Sequence record: MK373778.1
Reading direction: 5' to 3' (one strand)
DNA from: Escherichia phage vB_EcoM_WFbE185
Length of the DNA stretch: 64,000 nucleotides
Shown here: positions 2,382-42,515 of the stretch, piece by piece
How positions within the stretch are numbered: position 1 is the stretch's first letter
How the letters are laid out: each line of letters begins with the position of its first letter
Notes under the pieces: generated by a model
What the model was told of the DNA's origin: nothing
The model's input: only the letters and a program-made list of their open reading frames with translations
Database searches by the model: none
Position numbers and translations under genes: made by a program

Positions 2382-4707
<2,326 letters not shown>

Positions 4708-4734: not shown

Positions 4735-6717
4735 ATGTCACTTCTCTCTCCGGGCGTTGAGCTCAAAGAAACTACCGTACAGAGTACTGTAGTTAATAAC
4801 TCCACTGGTACTGCTGCCCTGGCTGGAAAATTCCAATGGGGACCTGCATTCCAGATTAAACAAATCACTGATGAAGTTGCATTAGTTGATATGTTTGGTA
4901 CTCCTAATACGGATACAGCAGATTATTTCATGTCTGCTATGAACTTCCTTCAATATGGTAATGACCTTCGTGTTGTACGCGCAGTTGACCGTGATACTGC
5001 TAAGAACTCATCTCCTGTAGCAGGCAATATTGAATTCACAATCTCTGCTGCTGGTAGTAACTATGCAGTTGGTGATAAAATTATCGTTAAGTATTTGACC
5101 GAAACTGTTGAAGCAGATGGTTATGTCACTTCGGTTGATGTCGATGGTAAAATTCTTAACATTTATATCCCAACCGGTAAAATTATTGCTCGTGCAAAAG
5201 AAATTAATGAATATCCGGCATTGGGTTCTAACTGGACCGCCGAAGTTGCCAGTTCTTCTTCTGGTCTCTCTGGCGTTATTACAATTGGTTCTATCGTAAC
5301 CGATTCGGGTATTCTGTTAACTGAAGTTGAAACTTCTGAAGAAGCTATTACTTCTCTAACTTTCCAAGAATCTATTAAAAAATATGGTGTCCCAGGTGTA
5401 GTTGCTCTTTATCCTGGTGAACTTGGCGACCAGCTCGAAATTGAAATCGTATCTAAAGCGGACTATGACAAAGGTGCTTCAGCCCAGTTAAAAATTTATC
5501 CTGATGGTGGTACTCGTGCATCTACTGCTAAAGCAATCTTTGGGTATGGCCCACAAACTGATGACCAATATGCAATTATCGTTCGTCGTAACGATGCTGT
5601 AGTTCAGAGCGTAATTCTTTCTACTAAACGCGGTGAACGCGATATTTATGGTAGTAATATCTTTATTGATGATTTCTTTGCTAAAGGCGCAAGCAATTAT
5701 ATTTTCGCTACTGCACAAGGTTGGCCAAAAGGTTTCTCTGGCGTAATCAAACTGGGTGGTGGCTTATCATCCAATGAAACGGTTGACGCTGGTGATTTAA
5801 TGGAAGCTTGGGATTTGTTTGCCGACCGCGAATCTGTTAATGCGCAGTTGTTTATTGCCGGTTCTTGTGCAGGTGAATCTTTAGAAGTTGCTTCTACAGT
5901 TCAGAAACATGTTGTAGCAATTGGTGATTCTCGCCAAGATTGCTTGGTTCTTTGCTCACCGCCACGTGCAACTATAGTTGGTATTCCTGTTAATCGTGCA
6001 GTTGATAATCTGGTTGATTGGCGTACTGCGTCAGGAACTTACACTGATAATAACTTTAATGTAAGTTCTACTTACGCGGCTATTGACGGTAACTATAAAT
6101 ATCAATATGACAAATATAATGATGTGAATCGTTGGGTTCCATTAGCTGCTGATATTGCTGGTCTTTGTGCTCGCACAGACAATATTTCTCAGCCTTGGAT
6201 GTCTCCTGCTGGTTATAACCGTGGACAAATTCTTAACGTTATTAAGCTTGCAATTGAAACTCGTCAACCACAGCGTGATCGTTTGTATCAGGAAGCTATT
6301 AACCCTGTTACTGGTACCGGTGGTGATGGGTATGTTCTGTACGGTGATAAAACTGCCACTTCTGTTCCTTCACCATTTGACCGTATTAACGTTCGTCGTT
6401 TGTTCAATATGGTTAAAACGAACATTGGTTCAGCATCCAAATATCGCCTGTTTGAATTGAACAACGCATTCACCCGTTCTTCTTTCCGTACAGAGACTTC
6501 TCAATATCTACAGGGTATTAAAGCTCTCGGTGGTGTATATAACTTTAAAGTTGTTTGTGATACTACCAATAACACCCCAGCAGTTATCGACCGTAATGAA
6601 TTTGTAGCTACTTTCTACTTACAACCTGCCCGCTCGATAAATTATATTACGTTGAACTTTGTAGCAACAGCAACTGGTGCCGATTTCGACGAACTAATTG
6701 GTGCTGTAGGTGGCTAA
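4735..6717 (+). CDS. 18: tail sheath protein gp18
   Basis: 660 aa; N-terminus MSLLSPGVELKETTVQSTVVNNSTGTAALAGKFQWGPAFQIKQ near-identical to recalled T4 gp18; SD AAGAGGA. Confidence 0.95.
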   Translation: MSLLSPGVELKETTVQSTVVNNSTGTAALAGKFQWGPAFQIKQITDEVALVDMFGTPNTDTADYFMSAMNFLQYGNDLRVVRAVDRDTAKNSSPVAGNIEFTISAAGSNYAVGDKIIVKYLTETVEADGYVTSVDVDGKILNIYIPTGKIIARAKEINEYPALGSNWTAEVASSSSGLSGVITIGSIVTDSGILLTEVETSEEAITSLTFQESIKKYGVPGVVALYPGELGDQLEIEIVSKADYDKGASAQLKIYPDGGTRASTAKAIFGYGPQTDDQYAIIVRRNDAVVQSVILSTKRGERDIYGSNIFIDDFFAKGASNYIFATAQGWPKGFSGVIKLGGGLSSNETVDAGDLMEAWDLFADRESVNAQLFIAGSCAGESLEVASTVQKHVVAIGDSRQDCLVLCSPPRATIVGIPVNRAVDNLVDWRTASGTYTDNNFNVSSTYAAIDGNYKYQYDKYNDVNRWVPLAADIAGLCARTDNISQPWMSPAGYNRGQILNVIKLAIETRQPQRDRLYQEAINPVTGTGGDGYVLYGDKTATSVPSPFDRINVRRLFNMVKTNIGSASKYRLFELNNAFTRSSFRTETSQYLQGIKALGGVYNFKVVCDTTNNTPAVIDRNEFVATFYLQPARSINYITLNFVATATGADFDELIGAVGG

Positions 6718-37678: not shown

Positions 37679-38249
37679 AAAAGTTTCGGATTTGTTCCCA
37701 ATTCAGAGAACGAAGATTATTACGAGAGTACTGAATTACTTCAATACCGGCTTGTTTTAGAATGTCTGCCCAATTTTCAGGAGATCTGTCATATAATTCT
37801 GCGTATACAACCTTTTTAATACCTGACTGTGTAATAGCTTTAGTGCAATCAGGACACGGAGAAAGCGTCGTATATAACGTAGCACCTTCAATAGAATTAC
37901 CTTTACGAGCTGCAAACAAAATTGCATTCAATTCAGCATGGATTTCATTATTAGCAGACCATGCACTATGAGCCGCTCGATGTTCTTTAGCCAAAACAAA
38001 ATTATCCACCCGTCCAAATGCTGTAGTGCCTTCTTTATGCCCAGCAACGATGACCGGGCTTGGTTTATTCTTCAACCAACCGTTTTCGGATGCATGTTCG
38101 CAACAGTTTGTACCACCTGAAGGAGAGCCATTATAACCTGTAGAAATAATGCGTCCATCTTTTTCAATGACGGCACCAACTTTCCATGAACAACATTTTG
38201 ATTCTTGAGAAATCAAATAAGCAATTTGAAGATATGTGCTAGCTTTCAT
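37668..38249 (-). CDS. cd: dCMP deaminase
   Basis: 193 aa; zinc motifs HAELNA and PCPDC. Confidence 0.95.
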   Translation of the reverse strand: MKASTYLQIAYLISQESKCCSWKVGAVIEKDGRIISTGYNGSPSGGTNCCEHASENGWLKNKPSPVIVAGHKEGTTAFGRVDNFVLAKEHRAAHSAWSANNEIHAELNAILFAARKGNSIEGATLYTTLSPCPDCTKAITQSGIKKVVYAELYDRSPENWADILKQAGIEVIQYSRNNLRSLNWEQIRNFCGE

Positions 38250-39241
38250 TATTGAACCTTATTAATATAAGTTAACAGCTCTTTAGTTTGTTCCCAACTG
38301 ATGCACGCATCGGTAACGGAAACGCCATAGGACATATTATCAGAAATTTTTTGATTTCCTTCATGTAGGAATGATTCTATCATAATTCCTTTGACCAAAT
38401 CATTAGCTGCTAAATTTTTACCAATACCAATTTGATTGCTATAATGCCCAGCAGCGTTTGCATGGCTACAGTCAACCATTACATAATGATTCAGACCTAC
38501 TGCACTTGCTTTGTTAGAAGCTTCTTGAATATCAGAAGAATGATAGTTCGGGCCGTTGGTCCCGCCACGCAATACGATATGCGTATTCTGATTACCTTCA
38601 GCTTCAACAATGCCTACAGTACCATCGACGTCCATACCCATATACCGATGAGGCCAGGCGGCACTATACATCGCGTCTGTAGCTACTTTAATAGAACCAT
38701 TGGTTGCGTTCTTGAAGCCTACGCACATCGGTAGACCTGAAGCAATTTCACGATGTGTCTGACTTTCAGTCGTACGGGCGCCAATAGCAACCCATGAGAA
38801 AATACCAGAAAGATACTTAATCGTGAATGGGTCTAATACTTCAGTTGCTAATGGAAGTCCCATACGTAGAAGTTTACGACACAATGTTCGTGCAACTATA
38901 AGACCGTGGTTCATATCAAAACTTCCGTCAAGATATGGATCATTTACAAGACCTTTCCAACCTACGGTAGTTCGAGGCTTTTCAAAATAAACGCGCATCA
39001 CTAACAGAACATTAGGAAGACGAGTTTGAAGTTCAGCCAGACGTTTGCCGTATTCAACAGCAGCAATAGGGTCATGAATTGAACAAGGACCTACAACAAT
39101 AAGTTTGCGTGGGTCTTCACCGTTCATAATCGAATTAACTTGTTCGCGATGAGAAGCCACTTGTGATGCGTAAGCTTCCGACAAAGGAATAATCTCAGCC
39201 AGTTCTTTTGGAGAAATAAGTTTTCCGACGACAGGTAACAT
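38249..39241 (-). CDS. class I DAHP synthase (phospho-2-dehydro-3-deoxyheptonate aldolase, AroG/AroF/AroH-type)
   Basis: 330 aa; motifs GPCSIHD, KPRTTVGWKG, GARTTESQ, DCSHAN, ESFLHEGNQ, TDACI align with recalled E. coli AroG active-site regions; SD AAGGA; stop overlaps the cd start. Confidence 0.9.
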   Translation of the reverse strand: MLPVVGKLISPKELAEIIPLSEAYASQVASHREQVNSIMNGEDPRKLIVVGPCSIHDPIAAVEYGKRLAELQTRLPNVLLVMRVYFEKPRTTVGWKGLVNDPYLDGSFDMNHGLIVARTLCRKLLRMGLPLATEVLDPFTIKYLSGIFSWVAIGARTTESQTHREIASGLPMCVGFKNATNGSIKVATDAMYSAAWPHRYMGMDVDGTVGIVEAEGNQNTHIVLRGGTNGPNYHSSDIQEASNKASAVGLNHYVMVDCSHANAAGHYSNQIGIGKNLAANDLVKGIMIESFLHEGNQKISDNMSYGVSVTDACISWEQTKELLTYINKVQ

Positions 39242-39361: not shown

Positions 39362-39598
39362 TTATAGTGTTCCATATACTCGAGTTGCTTCAACAAGACC
39401 ATCACTGCCTAATTTAAGATTAGTAATTTGGTCACCATCTTTAGGATTAACGATTATGAGAAAAGAACGTGGAGATTCTTGAATAACTCGTAATGTTGCA
39501 TCTTGGAAACGTTCAGACACTTTATTGATGAGTGCTTGAGCAAATTCTTTTACTTTAATCTGAAATTCGTGTACTGTAATTGGGTTTTCACTTAGCAT
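39362..39598 (-). CDS. hypothetical protein (cd.x region)
   Basis: 78 aa; SD GAGGAA; early promoter upstream. Confidence 0.45.
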   Translation of the reverse strand: MLSENPITVHEFQIKVKEFAQALINKVSERFQDATLRVIQESPRSFLIIVNPKDGDQITNLKLGSDGLVEATRVYGTL

Positions 39599-39626
39599 TT
39601 CTATTTCCTCATTTGTTGGTAGAGTT

Positions 39627-39656
39627 ATAGTATCACAACTCTACCATGTTGTAAAC
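39627..39656 (-). promoter_or_regulatory. T4-type early promoter with flanking inverted repeat
   Basis: Minus strand GTTTAC-N18-TACTAT; 9-bp arms at 39618-39626 and 39638-39646. Confidence 0.55.
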
Positions 39657-39658
39657 CA

Positions 39659-39934
39659 TTAAATTGCTTTGCATTCAATTTTTTGTGTACCGAAATTGAT
39701 ATCACATTGGATAACTAAATCGCCGTCAAGATCAAATACCACGATGACGTGTGCAGACCCAGGGAGAAGAGTAATAGCAATAGAATCTACTTGGTCTGGG
39801 AGCAAAGCATTGAGTACATGAGTTACTTGAGCATGAACTCTGAGTTCGGCTGCATTATTAAGCACTTCAAACATATTATTAGCAATAATCTGACTGAAGA
39901 CTACCTTTACAATTTCAGAATAAGTTGGGAACAT
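39659..39934 (-). CDS. hypothetical protein (cd.x region)
   Basis: 91-aa ORF. Confidence 0.45.
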   Translation of the reverse strand: MFPTYSEIVKVVFSQIIANNMFEVLNNAAELRVHAQVTHVLNALLPDQVDSIAITLLPGSAHVIVVFDLDGDLVIQCDINFGTQKIECKAI

Positions 39935-39941
39935 AATTACC

Positions 39942-40166
39942 TCAGTGCACAGTATTTACTTTAACTCGAACAACAAATCGCTCGGTTGGTTCACCTACAG
40001 GAACAAACTCTACATGATATTCACCTTTGTAACGAGTATTCAGATCATTACGAATTCCTGCGAGTTTGTTGATTAATGTAGGACTCATATTAAGTCCCAC
40101 TAGTTTACGAAGCATTTTGTATGCTTCATCTTCGATTTCATGATGTTTATCGTACATAGTTTTCAT
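39942..40166 (-). CDS. hypothetical protein (cd.x region)
   Basis: 74-aa ORF. Confidence 0.45.
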   Translation of the reverse strand: MKTMYDKHHEIEDEAYKMLRKLVGLNMSPTLINKLAGIRNDLNTRYKGEYHVEFVPVGEPTERFVVRVKVNTVH

Positions 40167-40338
40167 TTAACCATTCAATTGCCTGGTCGACGTTATCAAA
40201 TATACCACCGTCCAAACGTTCTTCATGCTCATAGTCCAGCACATCAATACCGAACTGTCCATTTACTAAAGGCCAGGCTACAAACAAATATTCTTTATGC
40301 TGTTCGATTGTACGAAAAATCTTTTCGATGTTATTCAT
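40147..40338 (-). CDS. hypothetical protein (cd.x region)
   Basis: 63-aa ORF. Confidence 0.45.
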   Translation of the reverse strand: MNNIEKIFRTIEQHKEYLFVAWPLVNGQFGIDVLDYEHEERLDGGIFDNVDQAIEWLNENYVR

Positions 40339-41053
40339 AAGTTTTCCATTTTCTACCTAGTTGCCAGTCCGGGCTGTTTAATCTAGGATCGTTTATATCG
40401 GTGGTAGAAGACTTTTTACCTGAAATATGGATTAACCATTTTCTAGATTTAGCTGCTTTAGAATAATTTTCTTTAGCCTTATCACTTCTAACCTTGCCTT
40501 TATTGGATTTGGATATTTTATTACCCCATTCAATAATAGACTCTTCACTCATAAAATCTTTAACATTCTTACCATACATAGGATTATTTTCGCCTTTAAA
40601 CGTATTACCATTTTTAAGACGGGTTTCTTTAGATTTAATCCCATGACCTGGCAATTTCTTACCTTTAATCCAAGGAACCACACCATTATTAAATCGTTCT
40701 TTTTGCGATTTAGAAATTTTTGCAGATGTTTCTGGGCTTGAATTAACATTAATACGATTTTCATTAATATAATCCCAGCCTCCTTCTCCGCCAGGTTTCA
40801 AATTGTAATTAGTATCCAGTTTTATAAATTCTTTAGTTACTAATTTGGCTTCTAAATCATATGCTTCTTGTTTAGTTTCAAATATTTTTATGATTTCTTT
40901 ATTAAAAGAATCTTTACCATATTTTGATTCAGCATTTTTAAAAGCTGTACCGGAACCTAAATAAGAATCATTTTCTTTTAAGGTCTTATGAACCCCTATA
41001 TAAATTTTGTTGTTAACCAAACATGTGGTTTTATACACAGTGTATTTTTCCAT
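40331..41053 (-). CDS. GIY-YIG homing endonuclease (Seg-like, freestanding)
   Basis: 240 aa from ATG at 41053 (SD GAGGTGA 5 nt upstream); N-terminal GIY-YIG module VYKTTCLVNNKIYIGVHKT...YLGSG and C-terminal NUMOD-like basic repeats. Confidence 0.8.
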   Translation of the reverse strand: MEKYTVYKTTCLVNNKIYIGVHKTLKENDSYLGSGTAFKNAESKYGKDSFNKEIIKIFETKQEAYDLEAKLVTKEFIKLDTNYNLKPGGEGGWDYINENRINVNSSPETSAKISKSQKERFNNGVVPWIKGKKLPGHGIKSKETRLKNGNTFKGENNPMYGKNVKDFMSEESIIEWGNKISKSNKGKVRSDKAKENYSKAAKSRKWLIHISGKKSSTTDINDPRLNSPDWQLGRKWKTYE

Positions 41054-41071
41054 TAGAATCACCTCTATAGA

Positions 41072-41079
41072 TATTTATA
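41072..41079 (-). promoter_or_regulatory. late promoter (TATAAATA) for the homing endonuclease gene
   Basis: Reverse-complement TATAAATA 18 nt upstream of the ATG at 41053. Confidence 0.5.
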
Positions 41080-41100
41080 TTCATCTATGGAGATTTCTAA

Positions 41101-42187
<1,087 letters not shown>

Positions 42188-42188
<1 letters not shown>

Positions 42189-42487
42189 TATTTTATTCCT
42201 AAGAAAGTTTCAAGAATACGAATGTTATGCTCGCGCCGGTCTTTATTAATTTCAGCAACGTTTTTATTAATTGACGTACTTCTAACGTTTGAAGAAATAA
42301 ATTTAATCATATGACTTTTGAGTTGTTGCAAATCCAACCCTTTTTCTTTAGCAGCTTTACGAAGAGCTTTACCTGCTTCATCTAGTGCCTTTGCTGCATC
42401 TTTGTCATAATTGACAAGTGACATTCCACGGCAGATATCAATATACTCGTCAGACCGTTTGATGTAATTCTCTAGTAATGTTTTCAT
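42188..42487 (-). CDS. hypothetical protein
   Basis: 99 aa; SD GAGGAA; early promoter upstream. Confidence 0.5.
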
Positions 42488-42515
42488 TTAGATTTCCTCA
42501 ATTATCCATAGGAGC

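Follow-up and report, generated by a model that had tools for sequence, protein, structure and literature searches.

The gene discussed here, called seg below, was found between pseT, which encodes a polynucleotide 5'-kinase/3'-phosphatase (PNKP), and a homologue of the phage T4 gene cd.4 in the genome of Escherichia phage vB_EcoM_WFbE185 (MK373778.1; "the window" is the whole analyzed stretch of 64,000 nucleotides). We give a probability of roughly 0.8 to the reading that seg encodes a functional free-standing homing endonuclease belonging to the GIY-YIG (Seg) type. The features at this locus are the following:

40331 to 41053, minus strand: seg-like GIY-YIG homing endonuclease gene (seg), 240 codons plus a TAA stop codon
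41059 to 41065, minus strand: Shine-Dalgarno (SD) sequence GAGGTGA, with GAGG 8 nucleotides before the ATG; paired in the predicted hairpin
41072 to 41079, minus strand: T4-type late promoter motif TATAAATA, exact match
41052 to 41101, minus strand: predicted RNA stem-loop in which the SD sequence, the spacer, and the first two start-codon bases (A and U) pair with sequence just 3' of the pseT stop codon
41089 to 41100, minus strand: conserved box TTAGAAATCTCC directly after the pseT stop codon, forming the anti-SD 5' arm and the left end of the mobile block
40309 to 41101: foreign block of 793 bp replacing 30 bp (ATGAAACGATTATATGAAGTGATTGAGGAC) of the empty site, from blastn, alignment, and the three-way site pattern
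40309 to 40338, minus strand: codons 1 to 10 of the cd.4 homologue, encoding the seg-linked MNNIEKIFRT and not the local MKRLYEVIED
40147 to 40338, minus strand: cd.4 homologue, 63 amino acids, 59% identical to T4 Cd.4 (E value, 2e-27; PHROG 2360)
41101 to 42000, minus strand: pseT (Pfam HAD_PNKP, 1e-58, and AAA_33, 2e-23), product 75% identical to T4 PseT

A preliminary description of this DNA had placed an open reading frame (ORF) at 40331 to 41091, between pseT and the ORFs near cd. The placement is borne out by Pfam and BLASTP, which identify pseT upstream and cd.4 downstream; a cd.5 identity for the downstream 63-amino-acid ORF was ruled out by BLASTP. The ORF is real, but it lies on the minus strand, and translation most likely begins at the ATG at 41053. 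The longer version in the ORF listing (40331 to 41062, minus strand) starts from an in-frame GTG at 41062; the ATG is preferred because MEKxTVYK begins five of the seven annotated orthologues and GAGG stands 8 nucleotides upstream. The MP1 and PM2 orthologues start with MSDVYTVYK instead. At the other end, the stop codon of seg overlaps the start of the next gene (ATGAATAA).

The Seg protein contains a GIY-YIG domain at amino acids 3 to 73 (Pfam PF01541; E value, 5e-7; 30.3 bits against a cut-off of 22.6) and a NUMOD3 motif at amino acids 140 to 162 (Pfam; E value, 2.9e-6 to 5e-7). The NUMOD-like C-terminal repeats of the preliminary description were recovered in part: this is the sole significant copy, whereas the second, at amino acids 109 to 136 in a piecewise scan, is weak (E value, 0.1, under the Pfam cut-off). 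The last 50 amino acids matched no Pfam family in the same scan and are conserved throughout the lineage in an alignment of 38 family members. Among the PHROGs, the protein was assigned to phrog_314, "homing endonuclease" (1e-43). The NCBIfam model TIGR01453, "group I intron endonuclease," reached 34 bits against a 56-bit cut-off and was not used as evidence of membership. No Rfam family, introns included, was detected at an E value of ≤1 in 39500 to 42500, and seg is placed between an intact pseT and an intact cd.4, which is neither an intron nor an intein location.

We aligned the Seg protein with six orthologues, all seven T4 Seg proteins, and I-TevI using MAFFT and found Tyr18, Gly20, Ser34, Asn84, and Gly91 to be invariant and Tyr7 and Glu68 nearly so. 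In the 38-member family alignment, the invariant positions are Y7, Y18, G20, H22, Y31, G33-S34-G35, E68, N84, and a GG..GG turn, and the motif spacing of the Seg protein is TVY(7)-x10-YIG(18-20). A profile-to-sequence comparison with I-TevI by hhalign gave a probability of 94% (E value, 1e-7) over 167 columns, pairing Y7 with Y6, Y18 with Y17, G20 with G19, and N84 with N90 (the last pair in both the MAFFT and the hhalign alignments). E68 was aligned at most one or two positions from the catalytic E75 of I-TevI, and the NUMOD3 segment was aligned to the GENNSFF segment. The best match of the predicted fold is the I-TevI catalytic domain, and the model has the alpha/beta fold expected of a GIY-YIG domain. 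A phmmer search of the PDB gave no I-TevI match, only a spurious hit to eIF5 W2 (E value, 0.075), and a PDB search with an 11-sequence profile returned nothing, so the link to I-TevI required hhalign and the fold comparison. The N-terminal GIY-YIG module of the preliminary description thereby holds, the catalytic residues being present and the motifs aligning to I-TevI and to every one of the T4 Seg proteins.

All seven T4 seg genes are located elsewhere in the T4 record, as the preliminary description had stated, and the T4 order pseT, cd.5, cd.4 includes no seg gene. Their locations and the BLASTP matches of their products to the Seg protein are as follows:

segA: between uvsX and beta-gt; 38% identity over 178 residues
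segB: within the tRNA cluster; 44% over 131 residues (amino acids 4 to 134; E value, 4.5e-32), the best T4 paralogue
segC: after 5.1; 51% over 90 residues
segD: between 23 and 24 (106561 to 107232); 47% over 89 residues (amino acids 3 to 91)
segE: between inh and uvsW; 43% over 118 residues
segF: between 56 and soc; 33% over 113 residues
segG: between 32 and 59; no BLASTP match, and 16% in the alignment

Because the BLASTP matches to the T4 proteins are limited to the nuclease domain, we conclude that the pseT-adjacent seg is not an orthologue of any T4 seg gene, segD included. With segD it shares neither full-length similarity nor genomic position, and the label "SegD" that GenBank orthologues such as those of PNJ-9 and P896 carry is similarity based and inaccurate. 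Like SegD, the Seg protein has a GIY-YIG domain, but there is no similarity past amino acid 91, and T4 segD is oriented opposite to its neighbors. SegB combines the GIY-YIG and NUMOD3 domains in the same way and has a comparable W...DP...W.GRK.K motif at its C terminus, and its lineage is likewise bound to one conserved target class (tRNA genes for SegB, PNKP genes for the present lineage). It differs in that BLASTP detects similarity only in the catalytic domain and in its address, the tRNA cluster as opposed to the 3' side of pseT. In contrast to I-TevI, the td intron endonuclease of T4, the present gene is free-standing and not intron encoded, and the Seg protein lacks the I-TevI zinc finger (it has a single Cys) and the segment with Arg27 and His31. 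With segE, segF, and segG of T4, the present gene shares the form of an intergenic cassette that has no counterpart in close relatives and is flanked by co-converted markers, whereas identity to SegE and SegF is 24 to 43% and confined to the N-terminal domain. Intronless homing and co-conversion have been shown experimentally for SegE, SegF, and SegG, which cut in or next to a neighboring conserved gene (PMC2330249). The genes segF and segG have no promoter of their own (PMC2988022), whereas the pseT-adjacent seg has one.

A 1.6-kb query of the locus matched 158 records in a phage collection lacking the window's own phage. About 139 of these are of the Mosigvirus type, with 95 to 99% identity in the flanks, and in all but two of the 158 the match is split and spans 838 bp versus 1601 bp, so that seg is absent. 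The two carriers, PNJ-9 (Mosigvirus; 88% nucleotide and 92% amino acid identity) and P896 (Gaprivervirus; 83% and 88%), have the gene in the same place. An identical Seg protein was found on one 4-kb Logan contig with the same neighbors, and among Karamvirus records 3 have seg and at least 20 do not. By blastn against the empty site of phage 55, homology stops at 41102, the A of the pseT stop codon, and restarts at 40308; in Mosigvirus and Karamvirus alike, the left junction falls on the A of the stop codon of the PNKP gene. Comparison with the near-identical phages that lack the gene has thus defined the junctions of the insertion that the preliminary description had suspected, and neither these phages nor T4 have seg at pseT. 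That it is a distinct insertion stands insofar as its position is unlike that of any T4 seg gene, but it is not unique, as a dozen GenBank phages from several genera have orthologues, annotated "SegD" or "Seg-like," in exactly this slot. The reading of a freestanding GIY-YIG homing endonuclease put forward there is supported by the motifs, the predicted fold, the lack of an Rfam intron, and this sporadic presence.

The seg-linked first 10 codons of cd.4 have, by comparison of the sites, the sequence footprint of a co-converted flank. PNJ-9 has a longer foreign tract, in which 200 bp of pseT show 57 differences and cd.4 shows 20. Its divergent patch in the 3' half of pseT (window 41182 to 41490) is 68 to 87% identical to the window and 65 to 79% identical to P896, and a further divergent patch lies in the 5' part of cd.4 (window 40207 to 40306). 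This looks like a long co-conversion tract from a third lineage, left by a cross-genus homing event. Over the 5' third of seg, the window, PNJ-9, and P896 share at least 95% nucleotide identity, whereas pseT is only 61 to 80% identical between genera, which indicates that seg has moved horizontally. In our reading, seg is a recent acquisition of a Mosigvirus-like phage, placed between pseT and cd.4.

The slot 3' of pseT occurs in three states: empty (Mosigvirus), with cd.5 (T4, and Karamvirus KMB17 with 47% identity to T4 Cd.5), or with seg. The end of T4 Cd.5, ...PWKTYE, resembles the end of the Seg protein, ...KWKTYE (T4 AF158101 excerpt 3306 to 3533; the stop codon follows in both), and the DNA of the T4 cd.5/cd.4 junction is identical at 35 of 38 positions to the junction of the seg 3' end and cd.4 in the window (40320 to 40357). 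Alleles with cd.5 and alleles with seg have probably recombined in the past.

The gene is full length, every family-invariant residue is present, and dN/dS (the ratio of nonsynonymous to synonymous divergence) is 0.06 to 0.21 in 14 pairs, about 0.1, indicating that seg is under purifying selection. Synonymous divergence from PNJ-9 is uneven along the gene (40334 to 41053): it is 0.16 for codons 1 to 100 and 0.89 for the remaining codons, and this mosaic suggests within-gene recombination between the nuclease and DNA-binding modules. These data bear on the explanation that seg is a homing endonuclease gene by descent only, now inactive or a fixed passenger, and an intact-looking relic. Homing endonuclease genes do degenerate after fixation, and inactive or poorly expressed examples are found in T4 itself (I-TevIII and segD; PMC2988022). 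The orthologue of Klebsiella phage EI is fragmented, with at least two short annotated ORFs and four tblastn pieces (excerpt 2501 to 3220), and is evidently a decaying copy, as expected late in the life cycle of a homing gene. In the window, however, the reading frame and the invariant residues are complete, dN/dS stays at about 0.1 over dS values that reach beyond 1, the hairpin and promoter described below are conserved, and the gene is rare in the genus (2 or 3 of about 140 genomes), which fits recent spread and not old fixation. We therefore regard a relic as unlikely.

The surroundings of seg are not uniform among carriers, except on one side. By tblastn, orthologues with 61 to 75% identity were found in Karamvirus (Ent31, EnC07, and KMB20), Marfavirus (Klebsiella phage EI), Gualtarvirus (MP1), Bragavirus (PM2), and Providencia phages, and in all five examined records seg directly follows pseT. 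Directly after a PNKP gene we also found more distant full-length relatives in Aeromonas phage ZPAH1 (41%) and on a 169-kb metagenomic T4-like contig (65%), and a further full-length relative (50%) follows a stand-alone 152-amino-acid HAD_PNKP phosphatase in an otherwise unrelated gene context. In such metagenomic loci, a stand-alone HAD_PNKP domain without the kinase domain precedes a family member (49 to 50% amino acid identity) among genes for a Fapy DNA glycosylase, an epimerase, a guanylate kinase, an SNase-like protein, and a dTDP-sugar isomerase. Relatives at 41 to 75% identity all lie 47 to 58 bp past the PNKP gene, and the PNKP gene lies directly 5' of seg in every locus checked, across 39 to 92% amino acid identity. 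A scan of IMG/VR, from which 80 Seg-like loci were kept and searched by tblastn with seven PNKP queries, gave the same picture: a PNKP gene ends 50 to 100 bp upstream, on the same strand, in six of the six full-length relatives (C-terminal domain included) and in none of the 74 loci with the nuclease domain only, 69 of which have at least 800 bp of upstream sequence.

The constant neighbor is thus the 3' end of the phosphatase domain and the downstream genes vary, from which we infer that the recognition site lies within the 3' end of the PNKP gene or spans its stop codon. In this region, DNA conservation among 12 seg-carrying loci is highest at ATGTGGCG, at GAATGYTGGCARGT, and at the terminal GGNRAYTTTTAG. 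Because the left junction falls at the PNKP stop codon and the last ~80 nucleotides of pseT are too conserved to provide markers, the sequences place the cut site no more precisely than the pseT 3' end or the junction.

The lineage ranges from Tevenvirinae to Emmerichvirinae, with stand-alone HAD phosphatase neighbors in uncultured phages in addition, and no description of a PNKP-linked Seg lineage or of a pseT-linked seg gene was found in the searchable literature. A wider proposal would be that seg belongs to a deeply conserved Seg lineage, so far undescribed, with a C-terminal domain dedicated to PNKP 3' ends. As with SegB and tRNA genes, the breaks made by this lineage might do more than spread the endonuclease: between co-infecting phages, the pseT-rnlA module for RNA repair (anti-anticodon-nuclease) could be preferentially inherited, exchanged, or amplified as a result. 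We consider the proposal rather unlikely.

Four observations weigh against a functional homing endonuclease at this site. First, a counterpart of I-TevI Arg27 is missing: hhalign places a 9-residue gap over I-TevI F24 to F32, and amino acids 21 to 40 of the Seg protein include no Arg. T4 SegA to SegE have the same deletion, with invariant His22, Tyr31, and Ser34 there instead, and SegB, SegE, SegF, and SegG are reported to be active endonucleases (PMC2988022, PMC2330249); the deletion is therefore read as a trait of the Seg subfamily and not as a sign of inactivity. Second, the right-hand junction has only about 6 bp (ATCGAA) in common with known donors. Third, the pseT 3' end of the window is nearly identical to that of seg-less relatives, with one unique change, at 41107, so that a site wholly inside pseT would leave the phage unprotected from its own enzyme. 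Probably the recognition site spans the insertion point, or self-cleavage is tolerated; self-cleavage by SegB on T4 DNA has been reported (PMC2330249). Fourth, the literature yielded no cleavage, homing, or expression data for the Seg protein or its orthologues. The change at 41107 is a synonymous T-to-C substitution in the penultimate pseT codon (GAT to GAC), 5 nucleotides from the insertion junction; the C is unique to the window in comparison with phage 55 and PNJ-9 and also occurs in the seg-carrying loci of Ent31, EI, and MP1.

The exact late promoter and the SD sequence GAGGTGA that the preliminary description had noted upstream of seg were both confirmed, at 41072 to 41079 and 41059 to 41065. 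The window contains 19 copies of TATAAATA against 7.3 expected from shuffling, and the one before seg is the only minus-strand copy within the early-gene block of 37 to 53 kb. Twelve of the 19 exact copies lie on the plus strand between 4.7 and 26.6 kb (window 4700 to 26630), presumably the late structural-gene block. In T4 late promoters the motif occupies positions -13 to -6, and a late transcript start is therefore predicted near 41066. No sigma-70 promoter or terminator above background was detected by a scan beside seg. An early-type promoter match upstream of the pseT operon (42544 to 42516; 11 of 12 positions, a match to the consensus only) could supply read-through transcripts.

RNA folding of the intergenic stretch alone gave a free energy (dG) of -14.7 kcal/mol (z score, -2.8), and 96 nucleotides of context gave -23.3 (z score, -3.3). 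The late promoter motif lies mostly in the loop of the predicted hairpin, with its last base, 41072, paired. The inverted repeat said earlier to bracket the promoter is real, its arms CTATAGAT and ATCTATGG being complementary at seven of eight positions, but it is more than a bracket: it makes up the inner part of the predicted hairpin at 41052 to 41101 that would sequester the ribosome-binding site (RBS). A repeat search with a 7-nucleotide seed did not report it, the longest exact run being 6 nucleotides. In P896, the single C-A mismatch of the hairpin is turned into a C-G pair. A hairpin covering the SD sequence, the AUG, or both was predicted in 11 of the 11 family loci folded (z score, -2.3 to -7.6), with arm sequences that are wholly different between lineages, and a TATAAATA-like motif occurs in the loop or the 5' arm in most orthologous loci examined. 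The box TTAGAAATCTCC has a single occurrence in the window at zero mismatches, and 12 of 15 seg-positive loci, with protein identities as low as 39 to 41%, have AAATCnCC at most 8 nucleotides from the PNKP stop codon. Control by an RBS hairpin together with a late promoter is known for I-TevI, I-TevII, I-TevIII, segB, and Aeh1 mobE (Edgell, Gibb and Belfort 2010, PMC2988022). The layout at seg indicates the same control as in I-TevI, segB, and Aeh1 mobE.

We also considered a three-way relation among the PNKP terminus, the box, and the RBS region, as an operator, a homing-site mimic, or an RNA switch. Complementarity of the box to the PNKP terminus is modest (P = 0.001 to 0.02 in 8 of 13 loci), the resemblance of the RBS region is marginal (P = 0.007 to 0.05 in 6 of 13 loci), and both are absent in the most distant loci; the relation was rejected, and the box is therefore treated simply as the anti-SD arm of the hairpin.

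The same resemblance enters into the explanation that the Seg protein has been co-opted, mainly for regulation through DNA binding or for making breaks that favor inheritance or amplification of the adjacent pseT-rnlA and not its own spread. PseT is part of the T4 countermeasure to the PrrC anticodon nuclease, which would give such a role a context. The RBS region of seg (GGTGATTCTAATG) is similar to the empty-site junction (GGTGATTTTTAATG), and I-TevI has a second role as a repressor, acting at an operator similar to its homing site (PMC2988022); SegB was recently shown to amplify anti-defense loci (PMC13096335). The likeness of the RBS region to the junction is, however, barely above background, present in some loci and absent in others, and is accounted for by the anti-SD box, with which each of the two sequences pairs. 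Neither a repeat expansion nor a duplication of pseT is seen in the window, and the sporadic distribution is what pure selfish homing predicts. Co-option is thus quite unlikely. That the protein is a non-homing GIY-YIG nuclease, degrading host or competitor DNA like T4 EndoII, for example, and located here by chance, we hold to be highly improbable.

For the functional homing endonuclease that we favor, we infer the following course, including nuclease activity, target position, homing, and expression timing. In a mixed infection with a seg-less relative, the enzyme would bind DNA through its C-terminal region (NUMOD3 and the lineage-specific module) and cut both strands at, or close to, the 3' end of pseT or the junction of pseT with the next gene. 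Repair of the break would copy the seg-carrying genome and so transfer seg with short flanking tracts. Expression would be restricted to late infection: early and middle read-through transcripts from pseT would fold the hairpin that hides the RBS and the start codon, whereas late transcripts from the TATAAATA motif in the loop would begin past the 5' arm, so that the SD sequence would be free and the message translatable.

Beyond cd.4, the window continues with an unassigned 74-amino-acid ORF, cd.3, cd.2, a DAHP synthase gene, and cd. The DAHP synthase, an auxiliary enzyme of aromatic biosynthesis, is of class I and has 330 amino acids (38249 to 39241, minus strand, between cd and the cd.2 homologue; Pfam DAHP_synth_1, 7e-75). 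It is missing at this place in T4 and present in Mosigvirus relatives, Klebsiella phage EI, and Proteus phage PM2. In phage EI, MobE-like HNH fragments adjoin the DAHP synthase gene in the same locus (excerpt 5067 to 5605).

Taken alone, seg is one further Seg-type homing endonuclease gene in a T4-like phage, and close orthologues have already been deposited and annotated; the mildly new part is the strict linkage to PNKP genes over large evolutionary distances. The linkage to a single address predicts where the target would lie, and the PNKP-tied lineage offers a natural series of enzymes and targets for how Seg C-terminal domains may read DNA. The slot that is empty or filled by cd.5 or seg would be a handy recombination marker for co-infecting T-even phages. 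The late promoter within a predicted hairpin, kept through full turnover of the stem sequence, lends comparative support to a control scheme that has been described in few genes.

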